DNA of 64,000 nt. It comes from an uncultured Methanomassiliicoccales archaeon (GTDB taxonomy: Archaea; Thermoplasmatota; Thermoplasmata; RBG-16-68-12; EA-27). The position numbers and the translations under genes were made by a program. How positions within the stretch are numbered: position 1 is the first letter of the stretch; the number at the start of each line of letters is the position of its first letter. Positions 6,688 to 29,774 of this stretch are shown here, in pieces. The notes under the pieces were generated by a model. The model saw only the letters and a list, made by a program, of their open reading frames with translations. It ran no database searches and had not been told where the DNA came from. The stretch covers positions 60,789 to 124,788 of the forward strand of contig CAYNEM010000006.1 of assembly GCA_964396265.1 (NCBI GenBank). Direction: 5' to 3'.

Positions 6688-7959
6688 CTAGCCGCCCCCC
6701 GCCGAACCCAGACCGAACACATGAGGGGAGCCGGAGGATTGGGACGACGGACCTCCCGTGAGGTGCGCGACCTTGAGAGTATTGTTTGTTTCGTCGACGT
6801 AGGCGATCAGGCCAAACCCGTCCGAACCGATTGTGATCGAGGGGTACGTCCCGACGTTGGCCGCATCGTCGACGGTCACGATGACCGCCTCGGCACAGGC
6901 GGGGTTCGAGCAGTACGCGACCTTGAGGGCCGTGATTGCGCTGTCGCGGAGCGCGATCAGGCCGAGACCGTCAGGACCCACCGTCATGGAGGAATACTCC
7001 CCGAGGCTTCCGTCGAGGGTCGTCAGCTCTGCCTCGGTACAAGCGACATCCAAGCAATGGGCGACCCTGATGCCGGCGTCCGGCATGTCCATGTAGCTAA
7101 TCAGGCCGAACCCGTCCTTGCCAACCGCGATCGAGGTCCAGTGTCCCGTGTAACCCCCGCCATCGACGATGGTCACAGTAGCTCCGGAGCAAGCGGTATC
7201 CCGACAATGAGCCACCTTGAGATGACCGTCGGAGTCACCGAAGTAGCTGATGAGGCCGAGCCCGTCCGAACCGATAGCGATCGAAATGTATCCGCCAACG
7301 TAGCCCGCATTCTCAATCGTCGTCACGCTCGCTCGAGCGCAGGCGACGTCCAGGCAGTGGGCGACCAAGAGTTTCATGTTGTTGGCGTCCATGTAGCTGA
7401 TCAAGCCGAGGCCATCCGAGCCGATCGCGATGGAGCTGTAGGACCCGCCCATGACGTCGATCCTCGCGATGGTGGCCCGGCTGCACCGCGCATCCAGACA
7501 GTGGGCGACCTTGAGGGCGTCGTTCGTCGCGTCCAGATAGCTGATCAATCCTAGGCCGTCCGTCCCGATCGCGAGGGACGTATACCACCCTACAGCGTCA
7601 TCGCCATCGAGCGTCGCCAGCTCGGCCTCAGTGCACGCAATGTCCAGACAATGCGCAACCTTCAGGTCCGCGTTCGTTTCGTCGAAGTAGCTGATGAGGC
7701 CAAGCCCGTCCGACCCGATCTCAATTGAGGGAAATCGCCCGAGAGCGCCCTCGATGTGAACCGCGGTGATCCCGGAATTCGGGATGGCGATTCCGCCCTG
7801 CGAATCGTGCGAATCTTCCCTCGGAGCTGGCGCTGCGAGCACCGCGAGAGAAGCGAGGAGCACACCCAGCGCGAAAAAGCTGGCTCCCATGGTCATCGCT
7901 CGGCCAACCGAGGTCCGGAAGAGCGAGGCGGGAAGCACCGCCTTCCCGTGAGAGGCCAT
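6688..7959 (-). CDS. secreted repeat protein with seven tandem ~49-aa beta-propeller-like repeats (conserved IAIGSDGLGLISY..LKVAHCLDxAC)
   Basis: Signal-peptide-like N-terminus (MASHGKAVLPASLFRTSVGRAMTMGASFFALGVLLASLAVLAAPA; alternative starts at 7896/7890). Then 6.5 to 7 highly similar repeats, each with His-Cys-x-Asp-x-x-Cys. No named family recognised. Confidence 0.75.
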   Translation of the reverse strand: MASHGKAVLPASLFRTSVGRAMTMGASFFALGVLLASLAVLAAPAPREDSHDSQGGIAIPNSGITAVHIEGALGRFPSIEIGSDGLGLISYFDETNADLKVAHCLDIACTEAELATLDGDDAVGWYTSLAIGTDGLGLISYLDATNDALKVAHCLDARCSRATIARIDVMGGSYSSIAIGSDGLGLISYMDANNMKLLVAHCLDVACARASVTTIENAGYVGGYISIAIGSDGLGLISYFGDSDGHLKVAHCRDTACSGATVTIVDGGGYTGHWTSIAVGKDGFGLISYMDMPDAGIRVAHCLDVACTEAELTTLDGSLGEYSSMTVGPDGLGLIALRDSAITALKVAYCSNPACAEAVIVTVDDAANVGTYPSITIGSDGFGLIAYVDETNNTLKVAHLTGGPSSQSSGSPHVFGLGSAGGG

Positions 7960-8165
7960 GACGCGCGCAGGGGATTGTCTCCATAAAAGGGTTCCTGGCC
8001 CTCTCCGAATCTCCCGGGTTGTCTGTAGGACCTCCTCTCGTCGAGCCCCACCATCCCTGCCGTCGGTGAGTGAGAACTGGAACTGAGGAAAGCGCATTCC
8101 TCCCACAACGCACGCGGCGCGCGGCGCCGAAGGTTTAAGGCCCATTTCCCTCTCCCATTGACGAG

Positions 8166-14909: not shown

Positions 14910-15658
14910 AATCGCAGGGGCGAAGAGCTGCGCGATTCATCCCCTTTTCGGCGAGTCGATCGCACGACTCCTCCAAGTCGGTGACAAGACCCCGGCGGGA
15001 CGTAAGGTTCTCGGAACCTACAAATGGGCGCACCAATATCCATTTCGCCCATAGAGCGCATGGCGACCAACGTGAAGGGGTTGGCGGGGTTTGTCGCGTG
15101 CATCATCACCGTGCTGGTGCTACCTACGGCCGCGCCGATGTCGTCGGGCGGGGTCCTTTTCGAGACCCGCGAAACCGAGCCGATTCTCCGAGTGGGCACG
15201 ATTGACGAGATGAAAACGAGAAACCCGATTAACGCGAGTGCCCGGGACATGTGGACCTCAGACGCGACGTCGACGATCGTCCGAGGCACGTCGAGGCGGT
15301 GTGCCCGCCCCGCGACGTTCGTCGGCACGACGGCGCGCACGAGGCCTGGGGGGAACCCCGCGCCCTTGAATGCCCACCACGGGTCGAAGTGGAGGAGTCC
15401 CTCGAATCGCTTCAGATCCATGGGAGGCGCCGCGATCATCTCGCCGGCGGTGCAGTTGATACGAATCTCGCGGCCTGCGTACGTCACGTCCCGGTCCCAG
15501 ATCGTCGGGGGCCTCCCGAGGACGTCGAGCGCGATGAAAGGGACGCGCCAGTGGACGTTGAAGAACGGGAGCACGTACTTCGCGTACCATCGCGTGTCTT
15601 TCAGCGCGACGTGCACGCCGGCGAGCTGGCGCTGCGTGACGACCTCGTCCGGTCTCAC
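14741..15658 (-). CDS. hypothetical protein (translationally coupled to rfcL; 3' part overlaps taw1)
   Basis: Its GTG start overlaps the rfcL stop as GTGA. The first ~215 aa look protein-like (W/F/Y-rich with one hydrophobic helix). The last ~90 aa are S/R/A low complexity and overlap taw1 by 168 nt, so a frameshift or a shorter real product is possible. Confidence 0.45.
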   Translation of the reverse strand: MRPDEVVTQRQLAGVHVALKDTRWYAKYVLPFFNVHWRVPFIALDVLGRPPTIWDRDVTYAGREIRINCTAGEMIAAPPMDLKRFEGLLHFDPWWAFKGAGFPPGLVRAVVPTNVAGRAHRLDVPRTIVDVASEVHMSRALALIGFLVFISSIVPTRRIGSVSRVSKRTPPDDIGAAVGSTSTVMMHATNPANPFTLVAMRSMGEMDIGAPICRFREPYVPPGSCHRLGGVVRSTRRKGDESRSSSPLRLWSTRSSARSLSARATRSSASTAASRCAIGRRASSRRASAATRKRFTESTPTAASR

Positions 15659-16998
15659 GTCCCCTCGCCTTCGAAGGTGCTCAGGCCGCCGCGCGCCTTC
15701 GGCGCCTCCCCGCGCATCGCCGCCAGCTCGCGCACCTCCTTCGAATCCTCGTCTGCGTCGAGCAAGAACGCGAGCTCCTTTTCATCGAGGAAGAGCGCCG
15801 CCGCCATCGCGCGCCGGAACTCCGCGTCCGCCCGGAACACCTCTTTGAAGGACGGGAGGACGTCGAGGGCCGTGCGCCGCCAGGACGCGTGGGTGCTCCC
15901 GCCGATCTTCCGACACACGGACTGCGTGGTCTGGCGGCGCGATCGGGTACGCGCCATCTTCGACAGCCACAGCGGGAACCGGTACGGCCCGCCGCCAGCA
16001 CGGCCGTGCCGCGCCACCGCCACCCCCGCGGTCATCATGTCGGACGCGTACGCCCAGAAGCGGTACGCCTGCACACGCCGCACCCGCCCCAGCCACACGT
16101 CCGCGCGAGAGAGCGCCTCGTACCCTCGCGCGAGGTCGTCGGGGTCGCGATACTCGTAGGGGAGGTTCTCGTCGATCCACAGGATGAGGTCCTCCGGGTC
16201 CTTGTCCAGGTTGTCCGTCGCGCGACGCGCGCGTCTCGCGTCCCCGGATTGGAAGATCTCGCGGAGTGCGTCGAACACGTTGCCCTCGACGTCGCGGTCA
16301 CCCAGCTTCACGACGTCTGCGGCGGGGACCACCTTCTTGCCCTCCGCGAGCGCCTGCAGGTCGTTCATCGCGCTCCGGAGGTCCCCGGCCGCATGGGCAG
16401 CAATCGCGTCGAGCGCCTCCTCGGAGAGGGACACCTCCTCCGTGTCTGCGGCGCGCTTCAGCGCCTGCTTCACGGCCTGCAGCGTGAGCCGGTTGAACTT
16501 GATCTGCCTTGTGAGGGACTTGATCGATCCGGACCGGCGGGACAGCTCGTAGTAGTCATTGCAGATGAGGACAATCGGCTGGCGGGTCTGGCGGATCGCG
16601 TCGACGATCGCGCCGATGCCGCCGAAGTCCTCGCGGCCGAACAGGTTGTCCGCCTCGTCGAGGATGATGACCGTGCGCTTCCCCTCGGAGGTCCGCAGGA
16701 ACTCCCCGGTCGCCGAGAACGTCTGCGTGATCGCCCCCTGGAGCGCGATCTTGCGTACGGCCTCCGCGTTCCGCTTGTCCGAGGCGTTCATCTCGACGAC
16801 GCCCCACCCCATGTCCGCCGCCAAGGCAAGCGCAGAGGACGTCTTCCCGACCCCCGGGGGCCCACTGAGGACGACCGCCCGCTTCTCCGGCGGCTTCTTG
16901 CGCCACGACTCCGCCCATCGCTTCAGATCCTGGATGGCGGTCGGGTTGCCGCATACGTCCTTCAGGGTCTTCGGGCGGTGCTTCTCGGCCCAGTCCAT
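15655..16998 (-). CDS. rfcL: replication factor C large subunit
   Basis: N-terminus MDWAEKHRPKTLKDVCGNP.. Walker A LSGPPGVGKTS, DEAD-like ILDEAD, and the RfcL C-terminal domain. Confidence 0.92.
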   Translation of the reverse strand: MDWAEKHRPKTLKDVCGNPTAIQDLKRWAESWRKKPPEKRAVVLSGPPGVGKTSSALALAADMGWGVVEMNASDKRNAEAVRKIALQGAITQTFSATGEFLRTSEGKRTVIILDEADNLFGREDFGGIGAIVDAIRQTRQPIVLICNDYYELSRRSGSIKSLTRQIKFNRLTLQAVKQALKRAADTEEVSLSEEALDAIAAHAAGDLRSAMNDLQALAEGKKVVPAADVVKLGDRDVEGNVFDALREIFQSGDARRARRATDNLDKDPEDLILWIDENLPYEYRDPDDLARGYEALSRADVWLGRVRRVQAYRFWAYASDMMTAGVAVARHGRAGGGPYRFPLWLSKMARTRSRRQTTQSVCRKIGGSTHASWRRTALDVLPSFKEVFRADAEFRRAMAAALFLDEKELAFLLDADEDSKEVRELAAMRGEAPKARGGLSTFEGEGT

Positions 16999-17787: not shown

Positions 17788-18474
17788 CTACTTTCCCCTC
17801 GACGGGGGCTTGAACAGGGCGGCGTCACGCTTCTGGTCTGGCCTCCGGATGCGCTTCTCCATCTCGACCTGCACCTGGGAGAACTTGTCCTGGTCCACGA
17901 TCGGGCGGTGCTTCCCGTTGCGGAGTCCCCCGTCCTGGCGGATGTACCCGCAGTACAGCGGGTTCCTCAGGATGTTCGCGATCGTCTGGCTTTGCCATCG
18001 CTTCCCGGTCTTTGTGCGGATCTCCGCGCGGTTGAGCTCCTCGCAGACTTTTGCGATGCCACGGCCCTCGAGATACATCTCAAAGATCAGGCCGACCGTG
18101 CGCGCCTCGTTCGGGTTCACCTTGAGCGCACCGTCGCGCGTCTCGTACCCGTAAGGCCGCGTGAACTCCTCGAACCCCAGGCCCGAGCCGCCCGAACCGT
18201 GTGACAAGATACCACGTATCATGGTCTTGTAGTCGAGCTTGCGCTCGACGCACAGCTTGCGCACCGCCTCGTCCTCGTCTTTCGCACTGAAGTGCGAGAG
18301 CATCTCCTTCGTCGACCCGAATCGCAGGAAGATCTCCCGGAAGACGACGGGGTCCTTCGGAGCTGCCTCGCGACACGCGCGGCACAGGACGGGGGCCCGC
18401 ATGTCCTCAATCGGGTGTTCCTGAAGGCCGCTCCGGCTCCAGCATCGCTCGCACCGGTCGTTCCCCACGGTCAC
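17788..18474 (-). CDS. serine-recombinase-family protein lacking the catalytic resolvase domain (zinc ribbon + recombinase domain)
   Basis: N-terminal CxxC..CxxC (CERCWS..CRACRE), then the 'recombinase' domain motif RPYGYETRDGALKVNPNEARTVGLIFEMYLEG..IAKVCEELN..GIRTKTGKRWQSQTIANILRNPLYCGYI. No YxRVSTxxQ catalytic motif. Confidence 0.75.
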   Translation of the reverse strand: MTVGNDRCERCWSRSGLQEHPIEDMRAPVLCRACREAAPKDPVVFREIFLRFGSTKEMLSHFSAKDEDEAVRKLCVERKLDYKTMIRGILSHGSGGSGLGFEEFTRPYGYETRDGALKVNPNEARTVGLIFEMYLEGRGIAKVCEELNRAEIRTKTGKRWQSQTIANILRNPLYCGYIRQDGGLRNGKHRPIVDQDKFSQVQVEMEKRIRRPDQKRDAALFKPPSRGK

Positions 18475-19286
18475 GCCTCCGCCGCCAAACGATCAGCCTC
18501 GATCGCGAGCACGACCTTTCTCCCTTGAACAGCGTCCCACAATCGGTGATCGACGATCGGCTGATGGGAATCGTCGCGGACGCTCTCGTCCCATCGGATC
18601 TTCCCGACGTAGACCGGATTGTGCAGCATGTAGCGGATCCCGGACTTGCTCCAGCGGCGGCCCCGCTGCGAAGGGATCCCATCGTCGTTGAGTTTGGCGG
18701 CGATCGCATGGAAGGCGCGCCCCTGGGCGTATTCCTCGAAAATGCCTCGGACGATGCGCGCCTCCGCCTCGTCCACGATGAGCGCACCGTCCACGTATCG
18801 ATACCCGAAGGGGCGGCGGAACCCGTTGAGCCCTTCCCCGGCCTTGTGCTTCTGCGCCATCCCCATGTACACGCGCTCCCCGATCTGCTCGGACTCGAGC
18901 TGCGCGATGCGCTGGATGATGTCCATGACGAAGCGCCCCATGGCGGTGGAGGTGTCGAGGGACTCCGTCGCGCTCACGAAGTCCTTGCCCCACTTCCCCA
19001 GGTCGTCCATCATCCCCATGAAGTTCCGCGAGTTGCGGTGGATCCGGTCCATCTTGATCACGAGCATCTTGTCCCAGGCATCTCGGTCCGCAAGCATCCG
19101 CTGGTACGCGGGACGGTTCACGTTCCTCCCGGTGTGGCCGTCGTCCACGTACTCCTGCGCGACGGTCCAGCCCTGGGCGCGGCAGAATGCATGGAGACGC
19201 TCGCTCTGCGCGTCGAGGGAGAAGCCCTCCTTCGCCTGATCCTCCGTGGATACGCGGGTGTAGAGTGCGACGCGTTGAGCTGCCAT
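18471..19286 (-). CDS. serine recombinase (resolvase/invertase catalytic domain + recombinase domain)
   Basis: Catalytic-Ser motif VALYTRVSTEDQ, then the recombinase-domain motif (RPFGYRYVDGALIVDEAEARIVRGIFEEY..GIPSQRGRRWSKSGIRYMLHNPVYVG). Its stop overlaps the downstream gene start by 4 nt. Confidence 0.88.
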   Translation of the reverse strand: MAAQRVALYTRVSTEDQAKEGFSLDAQSERLHAFCRAQGWTVAQEYVDDGHTGRNVNRPAYQRMLADRDAWDKMLVIKMDRIHRNSRNFMGMMDDLGKWGKDFVSATESLDTSTAMGRFVMDIIQRIAQLESEQIGERVYMGMAQKHKAGEGLNGFRRPFGYRYVDGALIVDEAEARIVRGIFEEYAQGRAFHAIAAKLNDDGIPSQRGRRWSKSGIRYMLHNPVYVGKIRWDESVRDDSHQPIVDHRLWDAVQGRKVVLAIEADRLAAEA

Positions 19287-19352: not shown

Positions 19353-19626
19353 CCCGGGCCCGCATTTGCGCGTCGGCACTTAAAAGTGAGTCCGCAAGAG
19401 CACGCGATGCCCCAGAGTGAGTTCGAACCATGCCCCACATCGTGCTACATCGTGGCGAGTGACGGACCGTGTTTAGATTCAAGCTTGAATCGCCTCGTTC
19501 CAAACGCGAACTGCGAGACTAGTCTTGGATGCACCTAAACCGACCGCATCCGCGGTACAACGTCCCACCCTGGGCAACGATCGGGCCTGCCCGTTCCGCG
19601 GCCCTCGTTCGCTAGGCCCCCGGCTG

Positions 19627-19761
19627 ATGAACGAAAAAGAAAAGCAAGGCCCCGCGCTCGGCGCGTTCTGCAAGCTGGATTGGCGGCTCTTCGACCCGGC
19701 GAACCTCGAGGGGCGGTTCGATGGAGAGCGGTACTTGGAAGCTGTCCCGGGAATGAAGTGA
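19627..19761 (+). CDS. small conserved ORF A (~44 aa), paralog of ORF B
   Basis: MNEKEKQGPALGAFCKLDWRLFDPANLEGRFDGERYLEAVPGMK. It shares LDWRLFDxAxLxxRFxGxRYxE with ORF B at 20632. The two copies differ mostly at synonymous sites. Confidence 0.5.
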   Translation: MNEKEKQGPALGAFCKLDWRLFDPANLEGRFDGERYLEAVPGMK

Positions 19762-19802
19762 CGGACGGTCGCTGAGGTCCGGCTGATTACATTTAATTAC
19801 AT

Positions 19803-19810
19803 TTATATAC
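19803..19810 (+). promoter_or_regulatory. TATA box (TTTATATA) for the UPF0175/PIN operon, preceded by tandem ATTACATTTA repeats
   Basis: AT-rich motif 30 nt upstream of ATG 19833 in an otherwise GC-rich genome. Implies a leaderless transcript. Confidence 0.6.
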
Positions 19811-19832
19811 AAGTGTAACGCTGGCAACCTCC

Positions 19833-20132
19833 ATGAAGGTCATCACCGTCCGGATCCCCGACGAGGATGCCGAGTCCCTGGAGTCCATCGAGCGCGCCGA
19901 GAAGGTGGACCGCGCGGCCGCGGTCCGGAAGCTCCTCTCCGAGGGCATCAACCGGTGGAAGGTGCAGAGGGCCCTGGATCTCCTCCGCCAGCATCGGGTG
20001 ACCCTGCGCACAGCGGCGCGCATGGCGGGCCTCTCCTACGGGGAGATGTTCGATCTGGCGGGCCGGGCGGACATCACGACAGGCTATTCCCTTCAGGACC
20101 TCCGACAGGACCTGGGGGAGCCGGACCGGTGA
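19833..20132 (+). CDS. UPF0175-family antitoxin-like protein
   Basis: 99 aa. C-terminal HTH (VTLRTAARMAGLSYGEMFDLAGRADI) typical of UPF0175. Strong TATA box TTTATATA at 19803-19810, 30 nt upstream of the ATG. Its stop overlaps the start of the PIN gene. Confidence 0.75.
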   Translation: MKVITVRIPDEDAESLESIERAEKVDRAAAVRKLLSEGINRWKVQRALDLLRQHRVTLRTAARMAGLSYGEMFDLAGRADITTGYSLQDLRQDLGEPDR

Positions 20133-20632
20133 TCGTCGATTCCTCCGCCCTCATCCCGCTCAGCCGCATCGGCCGCCTCGACCTGCTTCGCCGGTTGTAC
20201 CGCCCTGTGAGGACGACGCGGGACGTCTACCGCGAGTGCGTCGAGGAGGGGGCAGCCCGGCCCGGAGCCGACGCCCTTCGCGAGGCCTGCGAGCGGTGGC
20301 TTGAGGTCGTGGAGCCCCCCCGCGGCGCCGCGCGACTGGCCGCCGCCGAGGGGATCGAGCTAGCCGACGCCTCGCTCCTGCTCCTGTGCGAGGAGGCGAA
20401 GGACGCCCTGCTCACGAACGACGACCACCTGATGCGCGTGGCCCGGGCGCGCGGGATCCGGGGGCGCTGGCTCACGGGCGCCGTCCTCGCCGCCACACGG
20501 AGGGGACTGTTGACCCCCGCGGAGGCGAAGGAGCTCGTGACCCGGCTCGTCGGCGAGGGACTGTGGCTCTCCCCCCAGGTCTTCGTGGCAGTGCTGGACG
20601 CAATTGAGGCGATGACCGCTTCCCCGCGGTGA
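20129..20632 (+). CDS. PIN-domain toxin (DUF3368-like), partner of the UPF0175 gene
   Basis: GTG start overlapping the antitoxin stop as GTGA. VIVDSSALIPL.. and ..LLTNDDHLMRVA.. acidic residues fit a PIN nuclease of the type usually paired with UPF0175. Confidence 0.7.
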   Translation: MIVDSSALIPLSRIGRLDLLRRLYRPVRTTRDVYRECVEEGAARPGADALREACERWLEVVEPPRGAARLAAAEGIELADASLLLLCEEAKDALLTNDDHLMRVARARGIRGRWLTGAVLAATRRGLLTPAEAKELVTRLVGEGLWLSPQVFVAVLDAIEAMTASPR

Positions 20633-20772
20633 TGGCAGGTGAACGCAGAGAGCTATTGGACTGGCGACTGTTTGATTCCGCGACACTGTCCCGGCGGTTC
20701 AACGGGGACAGGTACGTCGAGCGCCTGAAGGGCCTGAGGCCGTCCCCGGACGAGGTTCGGCGAAAGGCTTAG
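20632..20772 (+). CDS. small conserved ORF B (~46 aa), paralog of ORF A
   Basis: MAGERRELLDWRLFDSATLSRRFNGDRYVERLKGLRPSPDEVRRKA. Its ATG overlaps the PIN gene stop as TGATG. Confidence 0.5.
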   Translation: MAGERRELLDWRLFDSATLSRRFNGDRYVERLKGLRPSPDEVRRKA

Positions 20773-20784
20773 GGCCCAGATGGG

Positions 20785-21138
20785 TCAGCCTTTGAGCCAC
20801 TTGGAGGCCCTCTTTGCGTCCCGCTCGAGTTCCTCGGGCGAATACCGGAAGTAGGGGATGCCCCGCTTGGCGGCCTCGTCGACCATTTCGTAGATACTCA
20901 CGCCAGCGTAGGCGGCAGCCCCGCCAAGGCTGAACTTGCCATGGAGGTACTTCTCCAGCGCGCGTTCCATTCGCAGCCGCCGGAGGCCCTCGTCCACCGC
21001 CCGCCGCGCCACGTCGGATCGGAGGAGGCGGAGGTCCGCGGCCAGCTCATCGATCTCCTCTAGGACATGCTCGTCCTTGCGGATCTGGAGGTTCTTCACA
21101 GGGCGATGTAATGACTTGTCATGTGATAAACTTTCCAT
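20785..21138 (-). CDS. UPF0175-like HTH protein (orphan antitoxin-like)
   Basis: 117 aa from ATG 21138. C-terminal ..KFSLGGAAAYAGVSIYEMVDEAAKRGIPY.. resembles the UPF0175 HTH. The longer 266-aa ORF upstream of it is low-complexity and unlikely to be translated. Confidence 0.5.
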   Translation of the reverse strand: MESLSHDKSLHRPVKNLQIRKDEHVLEEIDELAADLRLLRSDVARRAVDEGLRRLRMERALEKYLHGKFSLGGAAAYAGVSIYEMVDEAAKRGIPYFRYSPEELERDAKRASKWLKG

Positions 21139-21287
21139 CAGACGAGCCTCAGTGGAGGTTCCACCCTCCGCCGCGGGAAAGGAAGGAAGGGGAACAGGAC
21201 CCCCGGCGGAGGAACGTGCGCCAGGTCCAAGGCATGGGATTCTGCCATCGATGTATTTAAATGGCATTATGGCATAGTCTACCGCCG

Positions 21288-21554
21288 ATGGCGGAGCTCG
21301 TTTCGGTGGACCGCGCAGGGCGCGTCGTGCTGCCCAAGAAGATCCGAGACGCCTTGGGTATCGACGAGCGGACGAAGCTCCTCGTCGCGGTCGGTGAGCA
21401 CGGTCGACTGGTGCTCCAGAAAGTGGATGTGGAGGCCATCGCGGGTCGGCTGGAGAAGGAACTCGCCGGGAAGGACGTGGATGCGATTGTCCGGAAAGTC
21501 CGGAGGGAGATGAAGGCCCTTGCCCGCCGCCGGTATCCGGACCTTCTTGCTTGA
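21288..21554 (+). CDS. vapB: AbrB/SpoVT-type antitoxin (VapB-like)
   Basis: MAELVSVDRAGRVVLPKKIRDALGI.. swapped-hairpin AbrB motif. TATA-like TATTTAAAT at 21254-21262. Confidence 0.8.
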   Translation: MAELVSVDRAGRVVLPKKIRDALGIDERTKLLVAVGEHGRLVLQKVDVEAIAGRLEKELAGKDVDAIVRKVRREMKALARRRYPDLLA

Positions 21555-21951
21555 CACGAACGTCTTCGTGGCAGCGGTGAAGCACCCGGCGAGGGAGACC
21601 GCCACGCTCCGTCTCCTCCTCGAGGTCCTTCGGCGCGACGACGTCGCTCTCGTCGGGAACGACCTGTGGCTCGAAGAGATGCTCCGGTATGCCGAGGCCT
21701 TCCGTTCCGAGACCGCCTCCCAGCTCGTCGCCGCCTTAGTCGAGAAGACGCGGTTCGTTCGCGTCGACGCAAGCTTTCGGGCCGTCTGCCGACGGTTCAT
21801 GACCACTCCCGACCCCGCGGATGTCCTCCACGCCGCGACCTGCCTGCAGGAACGGGCGGTCCTCGTCACGAACGATCGGCACTTCGACCGGATCCGGAAG
21901 GAGGGCATCGTCGAGGTCTGGGACATCGCGAAAGCCATTCACTCCCTCTGA
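21520..21951 (+). CDS. vapC: PIN-domain toxin VapC
   Basis: FLLDTNVFVAA.. and ..VTNDRHF.. match conserved PIN acidic residues. Overlaps the 3' end of vapB, so its exact start is uncertain. Confidence 0.8.
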   Translation: MPAAGIRTFLLDTNVFVAAVKHPARETATLRLLLEVLRRDDVALVGNDLWLEEMLRYAEAFRSETASQLVAALVEKTRFVRVDASFRAVCRRFMTTPDPADVLHAATCLQERAVLVTNDRHFDRIRKEGIVEVWDIAKAIHSL

Positions 21952-22178
21952 GTCCCGCCGTTAGGTCGATGGACGAGTGCGAGCCGTAGCTGGACTAGCC
22001 GACGTTCTGCAAGGTGGAGTGGCAGCTCTTGACCCCGTCGACCTGACGCCCGTCCCGAAAGCTGGCATCGGATCCCCGATGGGGCGAGGCGACTTCTCCG
22101 CGACATGTCGCGCGCATCCCTTTCGACAGAGAAACCCAACCAGGCTCGGCGGCGACGAGCCGCCAGAAGGACCCAACC

Positions 22179-25640: not shown

Positions 25641-26567
25641 GTGGCGCCGATGGTCTTCGCGAACCGACTGCGCGACTTCCCTCTGGTCCTTGAGGTCGTG
25701 CCCCCCCACGGCCGCGCGAGCGACAAGGCCGTCCGGAGCCTCGTGAAGAAGGTCCACGAGGCCGTCGGCACGATCCCCCGACTCGACGCCGTGAACATCC
25801 CGGAGATCCTGGACGAGAACCACGCGGGGATGCCGTTCTATCGGAACATGGACCCGCGGCGGTTCGCGGGCCTGCTGAACCTCGAGGGTCCCCTCGAGCC
25901 GATCGTGAACAAGGTCGTCGTCCACATGGAGGGCGTGGGGGCGTTCGACACGTGGGTCAAGGAGTCCCTCGACGCGTACGGCCTGCGGAACTTCGTCCTC
26001 GTCGGCGGGGGGAGCAGCCGCGTCACCTACCCGGGGCCGACGGTGGCGGGGGCGAACGAGAGGCTCGCGCACCTCACCGAGGCGTACAAGGGAGTCGTGG
26101 GGGGAAACATCGCGATCCCGGAGCGGAGGGACGAGGTGTCCCGCCTCGTCGGGAAGACGCGCACGGGCAGCCGGTTCTTCACGACGCAGGTGCTGTTCGA
26201 GGCGGAGCCGATCGCGACGACGCTGCGGCACTACGGCGAGGCGTGCCACTACGAGGGCGTGCACCCCGCGACGGTGCTCCTCAGCTTCGCGCCCGTGTCG
26301 GACTACCAGGACGTAGAGTTCCTCGCATGGCTCGGGGCGACCGTGACGCCGGAGACGGAGGAGCGCCTGCTCCAGCGCGGGGTTCGCCCGGGCGTCGCGT
26401 CGCTCCAGGTGGCCCTCAAGATCCTCACGAAGATCCGCGACGCGGTCGAGGGCTCGCCACACCCGGTGCCGCTCGGCGCGAACGTCGAGCAGATCGCGAC
26501 GCACAACTTCGAGCTGGCGGTGAAAATGGCGCAGGAGTTCCTCGCGTGGAAGGACGCGAAGGTCTAA
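25641..26567 (+). CDS. methylenetetrahydrofolate reductase (MetF)-like protein
   Basis: 308 aa, TIM-barrel-like. ..LVLEVVPPHGRASDKAVRSLVKKVHEAVGTIPRLDAVNIPE.. resembles the MTHFR family start. Moderate confidence without a search. Confidence 0.5.
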   Translation: MAPMVFANRLRDFPLVLEVVPPHGRASDKAVRSLVKKVHEAVGTIPRLDAVNIPEILDENHAGMPFYRNMDPRRFAGLLNLEGPLEPIVNKVVVHMEGVGAFDTWVKESLDAYGLRNFVLVGGGSSRVTYPGPTVAGANERLAHLTEAYKGVVGGNIAIPERRDEVSRLVGKTRTGSRFFTTQVLFEAEPIATTLRHYGEACHYEGVHPATVLLSFAPVSDYQDVEFLAWLGATVTPETEERLLQRGVRPGVASLQVALKILTKIRDAVEGSPHPVPLGANVEQIATHNFELAVKMAQEFLAWKDAKV

Positions 26568-27002
26568 GGTCCTCCCAGGTTGATCCCTCCCATTGAGTTT
26601 TCGTCCGCGATCAGAACTCACGACGGTGGAGGACAAGGTCCCTCACTCGAGGGGAACGGTCCCTCGAACGCAGGGAACATCCCTCGATTGGGGGGCCAAG
26701 AAGGACCGCACCGTGCACACTCGGCACCGCTTGAGGCCGAGCCGCCCTTGGTTGAGGGGACCTCTGCCCCCATCGAAGGGAACGTCCCATCAGTCCGGGG
26801 GATGCACGCCGGACTCCCGAGCGCGTCGCCCCCCATTGAGGGAAATCTCGCAGCGTGGAGAGAAGGTCTACCCGGATGGGGCGGCCCCCTTCCTCAATCG
26901 AGACGGAGACGCCCTCCATCGATGGAGAGTTCCTAACGACCGAGGGGAGAGGAGCCTGCACATCGACGACCGCCGACGCCAAAGAAGACGGTCCACCGCC
27001 CT

Positions 27003-29774
27003 TCACGATCGCTTCGCATCCGGAGATGTCGACACGCTCCGGCTGCGGCCCCTGAGGACCGCGACGGTCACACCCGCCGCCAGGATCCCTCCGTCGACCA
27101 CGGCGCCGACGCCAAGCAAGGGCGGGATTGACAGCAACCCGGTGAAGTGCGACAGGATCCCGGTCGCAGCTTCCGCGAGGACGAAGGGGAGACTCGTGGT
27201 GGCAAATGCGACGATAGCGGAACTGCGCCCTCCCTCGTGCCCTTGCGCGCTCCGCCTCGACGACGATGCGCCCAAGGCGATGAGCACGGCGGCGAACACC
27301 GCGGCGACGAGGGGCTTCCAGTTGACATTCGCGGGCGCGAGCGGAATGACGACCTCTACCGCTACGCTCGCCGAGCTCACATTCCCGTCGTCGTCCGCCA
27401 CGACTAACCAGACGATGTAGAACCCGGGCCTGGAGAAAGCGTGCGCCTGCGCGGAGCTCGGCCCGCTCACCGGCGGCGTCCCGTCGCCGAAGTCGAACGC
27501 GTAGTCCACGATCGTCCCGTCGAGATCGCTCGAGCCGCTTCCATCGAAGGTGATCGAGACCTCGACTTCCACGGTGGTCACGCTCGCCGTAATCACCGCC
27601 GTCGGAGCCAGGCCCCACACCGTGACCGTGACCTGATCCGAATCGGTCAGTCCCTCCGTGTCCGCGGCGGTGAACTGCAGGACGTAGGTTCCCAGGACGG
27701 GCGCAAAGAAGTCCGCCGCGTTCGTCGTCCCGCCATTCAGGGTCACGCTCGCGGGCCCGGAGACTTGCGACCATGCGACGACGAGGGCGTCTCCGTCCGG
27801 GTCGGAAACGATGCCGTACACAAAGACCTGGGTGCCCTTGCGGGCCATGAAGCTCGACCCAGCATCGACCGATGGCCCCGCGTTGGAGACGGACACCGTC
27901 ACTTGGACGGAATCCGTGCCCTCGAAGTCCCCGTCATCAACGGTCAGCTCGAACACGTACGTCCCCGAGACCGATGGCGTGAAGTCGGCCGTCGCTGTGC
28001 CTGCGCCGTTCATGACCACGGGAGGCCCGGATATCTGAGACCAAACGTAGGCGAGTCCGTCTCCGTCCGGATCGGAGGAGGCCAAGCCGTCAAGGGGCAC
28101 CGCGGAGTACTTCGGAGCCGTGATGGGCGCTGTGGCAACCGCGACCGGCCGCGCGTTGAGGACCGTCACCACGATCGTGTCTGAGTCGGCGCCGCCAAAG
28201 CCGTCGTCCGCCCGAAGGAGGAACATGCACGTGCCGCTCCGTATCGCGGTGAAGGCCGGCATCGCGTCATTTGGGTCGGACAATGTGATTCCAGTAGGTG
28301 CCGTCCACGCGTACGTCAGAGCGTCGCCGTCAGGGTCAACCGACCCGGTGGCGTCGAGTGCGAGGAGGACGTTCTTCGCGGCGGTGGTCTGATCCGGACC
28401 CGCGTTCGCAACCGGGTTCCGGTTGAGCGGGGTTACTGCGACGGAGGTCTCCCCGATTCCTCCGAAGCCGTCGTCCACGGTGAGGTTGAACACATACGTT
28501 CCAAGCTCGGTCGGGATGAAGGATGCCGTGGCGGTATTGGCGCCCGTCAGGGTCACCTCGGGACCGCTGACCTTGCTCCAGGAAAACGTCAACGAGTCTC
28601 CGTCGGGGTCACCGCTGCCCGTGCCGTCCAATACGACGATCTGTCCGCGGAAGATCGGGGGGGCCGTGGCGGTGGCGCTCGCCGTCGGCGGGCGGTTCTC
28701 AATCTGGATCGTGAGCCCGTCCGTATCATTCTGGTCGGCGCTGTCCCAAACGGTCAGGCTTACGATAAAGGCGCCACGAACGGCGTAGGCGTGCGTCGCG
28801 AGGGGGTTCGTGTTCATCTCTCCGTCGCCGAAATCCCAGAGGTGTGCAGTGAGGCCGACGTCGTCGGTCGATCCCGTGGCGTCGAAGAGGATCTGGGTTC
28901 CGATGTAGCCGCTCATCGGGGTGGCCGCGGCCAAGGCCGTGGGGGGGTTGTCGATCAGGTTCAGCGAACCGCCAAAGACCACCCCGGCCGGATTGCAGTT
29001 GTACGGTCCGTCGCCGCAGCCGAAGAAGCCATTCGCGGCACGGATGGTGATGACGTTTGTGCCCGGGAGAAGGTACGGCAGAATGTCGAAGGTGGCCAGC
29101 GAATCGTGCGCTGGACCGGCAAGGGACTCATCCGTCACGCTGCCAGTTGTTCCCACGAACATGCCGTTGACGCGCACCTCAGCGAAGTCATCCACGGCTA
29201 CCGATGTTGTTCCTCCCGTAAACACCCCGGGGAAGTCGAACACTTTCGAGAAGAAGAATTCCGCGGGGAACGCTGGGGACGTTGTACCATCGATCGCAGG
29301 AGCCCAAATCCACGTCGCGCCTGGAATACTCGACAAGTCGGCCGTCCATCCGTCATAAGGGTAATCATACAACGTGGCCCCCGGAGGGCAATTCGACGGC
29401 GCGAAGTCGTTTAGGCAAATATTCTGCGCGAGGCCCAGGAAGGTCCCCGCGGAATCGGAGACTGACCAGGTGGTGTCCGAGACGAACGGAATCGTTCCCG
29501 TTGGGGCGTCCTCTTCGTCGTCGTTCAGAACGCCGGTGTTCGCGGCCACGAACAGGTCCGGGCCTGTATCGGGGATTGGCAGCGCGCTCAGGGGGTGGGG
29601 TTGGAGGAGACCTGCGGAGGGCGCCTCGTCCAGACGAGGGCTTGCGATCGACGAGCCCCCATCGTCCGCCGAACTCGCGAGGAGTTGGGACGACGGGGGG
29701 AGGACCAACACCGCCAACACCGCCAAGGCGACGACCGCTGCGGCTCGCAACCCCTCGCCCTCCCTCCGGTACAT
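27003..29774 (-). CDS. cell-surface protein with multiple PKD domains and C-terminal TM anchor
   Basis: Signal peptide. At least five PKD-like units (e.g. GTQILFDATGSTDDVGLTAHLWDFGDGE..; FDGSGSSDLDGTIVDYAFDFGDGT..). C-terminal hydrophobic helix plus basic tail. Confidence 0.8.
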   Translation of the reverse strand: MYRREGEGLRAAAVVALAVLAVLVLPPSSQLLASSADDGGSSIASPRLDEAPSAGLLQPHPLSALPIPDTGPDLFVAANTGVLNDDEEDAPTGTIPFVSDTTWSVSDSAGTFLGLAQNICLNDFAPSNCPPGATLYDYPYDGWTADLSSIPGATWIWAPAIDGTTSPAFPAEFFFSKVFDFPGVFTGGTTSVAVDDFAEVRVNGMFVGTTGSVTDESLAGPAHDSLATFDILPYLLPGTNVITIRAANGFFGCGDGPYNCNPAGVVFGGSLNLIDNPPTALAAATPMSGYIGTQILFDATGSTDDVGLTAHLWDFGDGEMNTNPLATHAYAVRGAFIVSLTVWDSADQNDTDGLTIQIENRPPTASATATAPPIFRGQIVVLDGTGSGDPDGDSLTFSWSKVSGPEVTLTGANTATASFIPTELGTYVFNLTVDDGFGGIGETSVAVTPLNRNPVANAGPDQTTAAKNVLLALDATGSVDPDGDALTYAWTAPTGITLSDPNDAMPAFTAIRSGTCMFLLRADDGFGGADSDTIVVTVLNARPVAVATAPITAPKYSAVPLDGLASSDPDGDGLAYVWSQISGPPVVMNGAGTATADFTPSVSGTYVFELTVDDGDFEGTDSVQVTVSVSNAGPSVDAGSSFMARKGTQVFVYGIVSDPDGDALVVAWSQVSGPASVTLNGGTTNAADFFAPVLGTYVLQFTAADTEGLTDSDQVTVTVWGLAPTAVITASVTTVEVEVSITFDGSGSSDLDGTIVDYAFDFGDGTPPVSGPSSAQAHAFSRPGFYIVWLVVADDDGNVSSASVAVEVVIPLAPANVNWKPLVAAVFAAVLIALGASSSRRSAQGHEGGRSSAIVAFATTSLPFVLAEAATGILSHFTGLLSIPPLLGVGAVVDGGILAAGVTVAVLRGRSRSVSTSPDAKRS

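Follow-up and report, generated by a model that had tools for sequence, protein, structure and literature searches.

CRISPR arrays alternate near-identical repeats of ~24–40 nt with unique spacers of about the same length. Iteron arrays and repeat-type centromeres such as F sopC are built from direct repeats of ~17–22 bp, or from longer units whose cores are inverted repeats; the copies have a phase of about two turns of the helix and are clustered within a few hundred bp. These near-identical copies lie beside the gene of the binding protein. The archaeal ORB and mini-ORB elements are TCC...GGAAAC-like dyads with G-strings, accompanied by an adjacent orc1/cdc6 gene, an AT-rich unwinding element, and ORBs in inverted orientation. 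REPs and BIMEs are short (20–40 nt) GC-rich imperfect palindromes clustered extragenically, often between converging genes, and they have been credited with mRNA stabilization or termination (PMC2817692, PMC3733652). A genome has >100 dispersed REPs, whose orientation alternates within BIMEs and which bear a GTAG or CGTC tag at one end (PMC2817692, PMC3733652).

Here, we analyzed a repeat in the DNA of an uncultured high-GC Thermoplasmata archaeon. The window, meaning the whole 64-kb stretch under study, comes from an NCBI/Logan contig 141,766 bp in length. In a gap between two convergent genes, it holds a degenerate 21-nt tandem repeat, found at a single locus, whose unit is an imperfect palindrome. 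With a degenerate minisatellite, this array shares head-to-tail copies at a constant period (21 nt), a single locus, copies only ~55–79% identical to one another, and no conservation above neutral. It differs from one in that the unit itself is an imperfect palindrome, in that three lineages differing at ~30% of sites have the same copy number and phase, and in that the hairpin potential decays slightly less than expected.

For a possible action of the array, the nearest analogue is the bacterial REP/BIME group (REPINs, mobilized by RAYT transposases), with which it shares the short stem-loop palindrome. The array differs from this group in its archaeal host and its restriction to one locus (in the window and 90 related loci, 1.05 Mb); in addition, its units are all direct and in a fixed 21-nt phase, and their consensus carries no GTAG or CGTC tag. 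Direct repeats phased at exactly 21 bp recall iterons and centromeres, but these copies have degenerated, and neither a rep nor a par gene was found among the neighbors in the three lineages that carry the array. The likeness to ORBs is superficial and limited to the style of the motif, as the units are direct and not inverted, are dispensable in sister lineages, and have no AT-rich element beside them. No Orc1/Cdc6 gene was found in the window and no Cdc6 domains nearby (the AAA+ gene at 15655–16998 has an RFC-type lid domain), and a replication origin was ruled out on the missing Orc1/Cdc6 gene and AT-rich element. The array is not of the CRISPR type either, its units being 21 nt long, contiguous, degenerate, and spacer-free.

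Results

The repeat lies between two convergent genes

The gap and its flanking genes are placed as follows.

25650–26567, + strand: MTHFR-like gene, 305 aa (translation; weak Pfam match to MTHFR_2).
26568–27002: non-coding gap of 435 bp separating the two genes.
27003–29774, − strand: gene for a PKD-domain surface protein, 923 aa, convergent with the MTHFR-like gene (Pfam search and translation).

The MTHFR-like protein has 619 homologues, labeled 5,10-methylenetetrahydrofolate reductase or Thermoplasmata hypothetical protein, and an identical protein is present on the Logan and NCBI contigs. Both flanking genes have homologues in uncultured high-GC Thermoplasmata from metagenomes of soil, groundwater, and sediment. 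By eye, no promoter-like element is evident in the GC-rich gap.

Array architecture

The sequence-only reading of this DNA had described an array of about ten palindromic units between converging genes, quoting five of them. All five are present in the setting described: CCCTCACTCGAGGGGAACG at 26640, CCCTCGAACGCAGGGAACA at 26661, CCCCCATCGAAGGGAACG at 26767, CCCCCCATTGAGGGAAATC at 26829, and CTCCATCGATGGAG at 26914. The repeat itself is upheld, but it is more than about ten scattered units: these belong to a phased 21-nt tandem array of ~16 periods.

26583–26606, + strand: u0, a weak outlying unit (ATCCCTCCCATTGAG...), not significant in the leave-one-out position weight matrix (PWM).
26638–26958, + strand: array core, ~15–16 head-to-tail periods of exactly 21 nt, all direct (autocorrelation, 21-nt stacking, unit alignment, and PWM).
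26638–26700, + strand: u1, u2, and u3, contiguous, starting at 26638, 26659, and 26679/26680 (unit alignment, PWM, and hairpin tests).
26743–26805, + strand: u4, u5, and u6, starting at 26743, 26764, and 26785 (repeat family D2, PWM).
26827–26847, + strand: u7 (CGCCCCCCATTGAGGGAAATC), with the top leave-one-out PWM score, 18.5.
26866–26952, + strand: u7b, u8, u9, and u10, with rows starting at 26869, 26890, 26911, and 26932 (alignment, 21-nt stacking).
26963–26974, + strand: TCGACGACCGCC, the longest block invariant in the three lineages (12 nt), just outside the periodic core.

About ten of the ~15–16 periods are still recognizable as a GC-rich imperfect palindrome, approximately GTCCCTC-nATYGA-GGGGAAC; the unit alignment gives the consensus ~nnGTCCCTC(C)ATYGAGGGGAACnn, in which a C-run and a G-run form a stem of 4–7 bp around a loop with TCGA or TTGA, followed by AAC. 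In each of u1, u2, and u3, the C-run/G-run stem has 4–6 bp and the loop 4–6 nt; u4 and u5 are similar to u1 and u2 at a lag of 105 nt (5 × 21), and u9 is the palindrome CTCCATCGATGGAG. When rows of 21 nt are cut from 26638 onward, they hold register for ~15 rows, to ~26958, including decayed rows that start at 26701, 26722, 26806, and 26848. The exact 21-nt phase extends over ~320 nt, both here and in the two orthologous arrays. The apparent spacers between recognizable units are thus decayed units.

Several short blocks are invariant in the three lineages that carry the array. Besides TCGACGACCGCC, they include GAGGGGACCTC (26754–26764) in the u4–u6 region and CGGATGGGGCG (26873–26883) and TCCTCAAT (26891–26898) in the u7b–u10 region. 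Upstream of the main array, u0 ends in TTTCGTCC (26599–26606), which contains a short T run and is likewise invariant in all three; judging from its sequence, this T run could possibly end transcription of the MTHFR-like gene as an archaeal oligo-T signal.

The periodicity is beyond chance

The periodicity is statistically solid. Autocorrelation peaks were found at lags of 21, 42, 63, 84, 105, and 126 nt, with z values that range from 3.5 to 5.3 for the window and reach 7.3 in two orthologous arrays, and no other period competes. The lack of any dot-plot periodicity that had been named as grounds for refutation is therefore not what the sequence shows. A repeat search recovered five copies of 23 nt with at least 70% identity, at spacings of 21, 105, 63, and 83 nt. 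With a leave-one-out PWM, u1, u5, and u7 scored above all background positions in the window, u2 and u4 reached p ≤ 1.6e-5 per position, two further units p ~2e-4, and one 1.6e-3. Across the 1.05 Mb scanned, clustered PWM matches were found in the arrays only (11 matches against a background maximum of 4).

Generic tests understate the repeat. Self-similarity of 12-mers was modest against shuffles (z ~2.9 for direct and ~1.4 for inverted matches), and Tandem Repeats Finder reported nothing for the array, because its copies are <~70% identical.

In the DNA searched, the unit is confined to one locus and matches no known family

Regular expression, nhmmer, blastn, and PWM-cluster searches covered the rest of the 64-kb window and 90 loci from related archaea, 1.05 Mb in all, and revealed no other copy or cluster of the unit. 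A scan of IMG/VR with a two-block signature of the array gave no array match, nor did blastn against PLSDB and phage records. As these searches yielded only orthologous arrays or chance matches, a dispersed repeat family was rejected. Of the three identities first proposed for the feature, a decayed mini-repeat remains the best one, as a local decayed tandem repeat and not as a dispersed element.

A second weak PWM cluster, at 7100–7800 of the window, was dismissed as a coding repeat with a different unit within a 485-aa ORF. This ORF (6688–8145, − strand) contains a degenerate internal repeat of ~120 nt, especially at 7080–7860, which produced the small false cluster; motifs such as GTAGCTGATxAxGCCGAxCCCGTCC recur in it, and Tandem Repeats Finder was silent here. 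The ORF probably encodes a repeat-domain protein.

Two Rfam scans ruled out a known RNA family: with Rfam 15, nothing reached the gathering thresholds over the array, and the region 26000–27600 gave only chance-level matches (E ≥ 2.5). The sole Rfam match in the window at the gathering threshold is a tRNA gene at 58232–58315 (+ strand; 84 nt against a model of 71 positions, 54.7 bits). Intrinsic terminators occur at chance level only, with a single − strand site against 0.6 expected from shuffles, and no T run follows the units; a classical terminator of the hairpin-plus-T type is thus not supported.

The array is not coding

A period of 21 nt equals seven codons, and an open frame of 118 codons (26580–26936), in the same frame as the MTHFR-like gene, spans the array; in L075, one of the orthologous contigs, one pipeline even called a 210-aa ORF across it. 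The array could on these grounds be a current or recent protein-coding gene with a heptapeptide repeat (P-x-L/I-E-G-N-x), including a read-through extension of the MTHFR-like gene. Other properties contradict this. GC content by codon phase is 0.67/0.62/0.61 in the array, with a GC3 of 0.61 in the open frame against at least 0.9 in genes. Substitutions between lineages follow no phase pattern (identities of 0.76/0.72/0.70, 0.68/0.68/0.70, and 0.63/0.71/0.70), whereas the MTHFR-like gene shows 95–97% identity at positions 1 and 2 and 82–86% at position 3. A net frameshift of 1 nt separates the window from lineages B and E (introduced below), so that the open frames differ. No gene was called over the array in L005, L006, L076, or L091, and in L077 only a 75-aa call overlaps its PKD-proximal edge. 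The array has no Pfam match, and its translation has no relative among 5.8 billion proteins except one spurious gene call.

A coding or pseudogene origin was rejected on codon-phase GC, substitutions, frameshifts, and missing relatives, and we consider it almost certainly wrong. The sequence-only reading had also taken the repeat to be a nucleotide-level one, citing a peptide periodicity in several frames. Its conclusion agrees with the evidence above, but the periodicity it cited was misread: since 21 nt make seven codons, four of the five best copies share one frame.

Orthologous arrays and lineages without one

The same strain is represented on two Logan contigs, in which the array region is 100% identical. 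Beyond this strain, a collinear array directly follows the same MTHFR-like stop codon in two other species-level lineages. Lineage B (L075, L076, and L077, mutually identical and from three samples) has an MTHFR-like protein 92.5% identical and a PKD protein 81% identical to those of the window. In lineage E (L091), the MTHFR-like protein is 93% identical to that of the window, and the array is followed by an orphan 122-aa gene instead of the PKD gene. The array thus lies directly downstream of the MTHFR-like gene in all three lineages that carry it, even where the downstream neighbor has changed. It adjoins the PKD gene in the window's lineage and lineage B only, and the possibility that it is part of the PKD gene was discarded on the different downstream gene of lineage E.

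Lineages C, D (L001), and L089 have no array, though they are as close or closer in their MTHFR-like protein. In lineage C, a 65-bp gap and a 254-aa PKD gene take its place, and nucleotide homology to the window breaks off precisely at the stop codon, to return at 29711. The intervening 3.1-kb segment of the window (26567–29710), which includes the PKD gene, has only short internal PKD-repeat matches to lineage C at the nucleotide level. In lineage D and L089, the sequence downstream of the MTHFR-like gene is unrelated. From the presence of the array in lineages B and E and its absence from C, D, and L089, comparison of these sequences indicates that the array is old and dispensable; it keeps to the 3′ end of the MTHFR-like gene and marks the border of a hypervariable island.

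The region around the array varies in further respects. The hypervariable island after the MTHFR-like gene corresponds to 26567–29710 of the window and to L067:6918–7847, and its PKD proteins (923 aa in the window, 254 aa in lineage C) are 50% identical over 159 aa. At 27003–27230 (− strand), the 923-aa protein has an extra hydrophobic tail of ~74 aa beyond its transmembrane segment and basic patch; the tail is kept in lineage B and absent from the 254-aa version of lineage C. The DNA at 27055–27097 shows a weak likeness to a portion of the array (families D4 and D5 of the repeat search), which may be due to chance. The lineage D contig ends 234 nt past the MTHFR-like stop codon (L001:2033–2266), in sequence unrelated to the array, and several other close relatives are represented by short contigs that break near the MTHFR-like gene; such breaks fit a variable or hard-to-assemble region.

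In lineage E, 82 nt of the MTHFR-like 3′ end, including the stop codon, occur as a direct repeat (L091:1196–1277 and L091:2321–2402, 80/82 identical). The two copies enclose a segment of 1,043 bp with the array, the orphan 122-aa gene (− strand), and a TTTATA-like box. This arrangement resembles what a Campbell-type or site-specific integration at the gene's 3′ end would leave behind. The orphan gene has no Pfam or PHROG match and no homologue in the window, and the window holds no second copy of the MTHFR-like 3′ end.

Elsewhere in the window, a serine recombinase is split into two neighboring ORFs at 17788–19286 (Resolvase and Recombinase, then Recombinase), followed at ~19600–22000 by toxin-antitoxin pairs (RHH/UPF0175, DUF3368, and MazE/PIN). 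The recombinase pair is kept in lineages both with and without the array.

Divergence of the primary sequence

The array was compared with the fourfold degenerate sites of the adjacent MTHFR-like gene.

Window and lineage B: array identity 69.2%, fourfold sites 78.4%.
Window and lineage E: array identity 68.5%, fourfold sites 78.8%.
Lineages B and E: array identity 72.3%, fourfold sites 82.9%.

In all three pairs, identity is lower in the array than at the fourfold sites, and conservation is no higher in the units (64%) than in the stretches that separate them (63%). Drift of the primary sequence is thus no slower than that of synonymous sites.

Hairpins and spacing

Many of the units had been noted to form short hairpins, and this was seen in all three lineages, with unit stems of 4–7 bp in each. 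The summed hairpin energies of the units were −65.6, −82.6, and −72.1 kcal/mol in the three lineages, against −40.5, −49.1, and −50.5 kcal/mol for mononucleotide shuffles (sd 6–7), and 91.9% of the cells in local stems were paired, against 47–69% with slid partners. We then asked how far hairpins are retained relative to random substitutions with a matched spectrum, applied to a majority-rule ancestor, a choice of ancestor that may bias the test. For + strand RNA, the hairpin sum over 10 units and three lineages was −220 kcal/mol against −193 ± 12 kcal/mol (z −2.4, P ~0.009); for − strand RNA, P was 0.047, and with DNA parameters the result was not significant. An earlier version of this test, in which the window was randomly mutated, had given P < 0.0005 and was discounted because the window had been treated as the ancestor; the ancestor-based version is much weaker.

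Both sides have changed in only 2 of 45 stem pairs, and the shuffle control was not significant (45/500). An asymmetry between G.U and C.A pairs was discounted as an indicator of the strand, because the stem prediction had allowed G.U pairs. The region as a whole folds unremarkably (z-scores of −1.5 and −0.7), and the covariation term of the RNAalifold consensus fold is unfavorable (+5.4), which argues against a single global RNA fold. Together with the empty Rfam scans, these values speak against the defined multi-hairpin ncRNA that had been envisaged.

Further signs concern spacing. A non-coding stretch of 435–485 bp persists in the three lineages. Within the periodic core, the lineages differ by only three indels, of 1–2 nt, while larger ones (5–20 nt) lie in the flanks; by our count, this difference between core and flanks is not significant. 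Six invariant runs of at least 8 nt (8–12 nt) were found in the three lineages where 1.2 were expected, although anchoring of the alignment inflates such clustering. Taken as sequence comparisons, these observations hint at a constraint on structure or spacing. Each of them is weak, since there are three sequences only, the stems come from the very alignment on which they were assessed, and anchoring adds to the number of invariant runs.

Discussion

The array is neither a mobile repeat of the dispersed kind nor a known RNA, and it does not code for protein. Its best reading, to which we give roughly even probability, is that one hairpin-forming 21-bp unit was amplified locally and is now decaying, in the manner of a minisatellite. 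A single GC-rich 21-bp hairpin unit would have been amplified head to tail ~16 times after the MTHFR-like stop codon, before the split of the three species-level lineages. The array would afterwards have been inherited in place and have drifted approximately neutrally, with no homogenization between units, and several sister lineages would have lost it. The array most likely has no sequence-specific function. The only property that may be weakly retained is a short stem-loop per unit in the + strand transcript, which has the same sense as the MTHFR-like gene. A remaining role, if any, would then be passive, with stem-loops in the 3′ flank hindering 3′ exonucleases or read-through between the convergent genes.

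An array of selected stem-loops is a stronger version of this last point. The units would act as RNA hairpins in the 3′ flank of the MTHFR-like gene in the manner of REPs and BIMEs, with folding ability and not sequence under selection, and they would block 3′-to-5′ exonucleases or stop read-through or collisions of the converging transcripts. That the hairpins are better than shuffles in all three lineages fits this explanation, and so does their advantage over random substitutions on the + strand, but this advantage disappears with DNA parameters, is marginal for the − strand, and was obtained with an ancestor that may favor one outcome. A palindrome can be kept despite sequence change, as in u9, where CTCCATCGATGGAG of the window corresponds to CTCCCATCGAGGGAG of lineage B; yet stem pairs changed on both sides are few, their number does not stand out from the shuffle control, and the fold of the whole region is unremarkable. 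The constant position directly 3′ of the MTHFR-like gene is also in keeping with an RNA role, whereas related lineages manage without the array, and if transcription ends at the conserved T-run block upstream of the main array, most units would remain untranscribed. On balance, we think selection for RNA stem-loops unlikely.

Less likely again, in our view, is that the array is or was a DNA-level platform for protein binding (iterons, a centromere-like site, or recombinase arm sites), left by an element that integrated at the MTHFR-like 3′ end, the edge of the hypervariable island. Homology between lineages breaks off at the stop codon, precisely where the array begins to follow the gene, and lineage E has the array enclosed with the orphan gene within the 82-nt repeat, as after integration of a circular element; the window, however, shows no such second copy of the gene end, and viral, plasmid, and phage collections gave no match. 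Recombinase and toxin-antitoxin genes do occur in the wider region, but the serine recombinase pair is shared with array-free lineages, and no rep, par, Orc1/Cdc6, or integrase gene adjoins the array in any lineage that carries it. The exact two-turn phase over ~15 units, with an almost indel-free core, suits a binding array, and the palindromic unit cores are as expected for dimeric proteins. The originally proposed regulator-binding array may likewise fit the 21-bp phase, but the poor sequence conservation speaks against it, no partner gene was found, and no promoter-like element is evident in the gap. Units this dissimilar, with half-sites that drift freely, are poorly suited to a single binding specificity, and no AT-rich unwinding region is present, the GC content being at least 0.60 in every 200-nt segment. 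A more specific and improbable form of this proposal is that the 21-bp phase and the hairpin cores would be selected because the array serves as a platform for an iteron-like, centromere-like, or recombinase arm-site binder, making the 3′ end of the MTHFR-like gene a hot spot of integration and recombination at which different lineages of these Thermoplasmata swap surface-protein cassettes; the 82-nt repeat of lineage E would then be the footprint of such an integration.

With local amplification and decay as the preferred reading, the array is a real but ordinary feature with faint hints of constraint and probably little or no function. A convincing-looking intergenic hairpin array in an archaeon can be a drifting relic, and three moderately diverged orthologues suffice to reveal such drift. 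If the signs of constraint hold, namely the hairpins, the 21-bp phase with few indels, and the position at the edge of an island, the array would be among the few candidate REP-like or iteron-like cis-elements in uncultured Thermoplasmata and would offer a handle on the exchange of surface-protein islands in these archaea.
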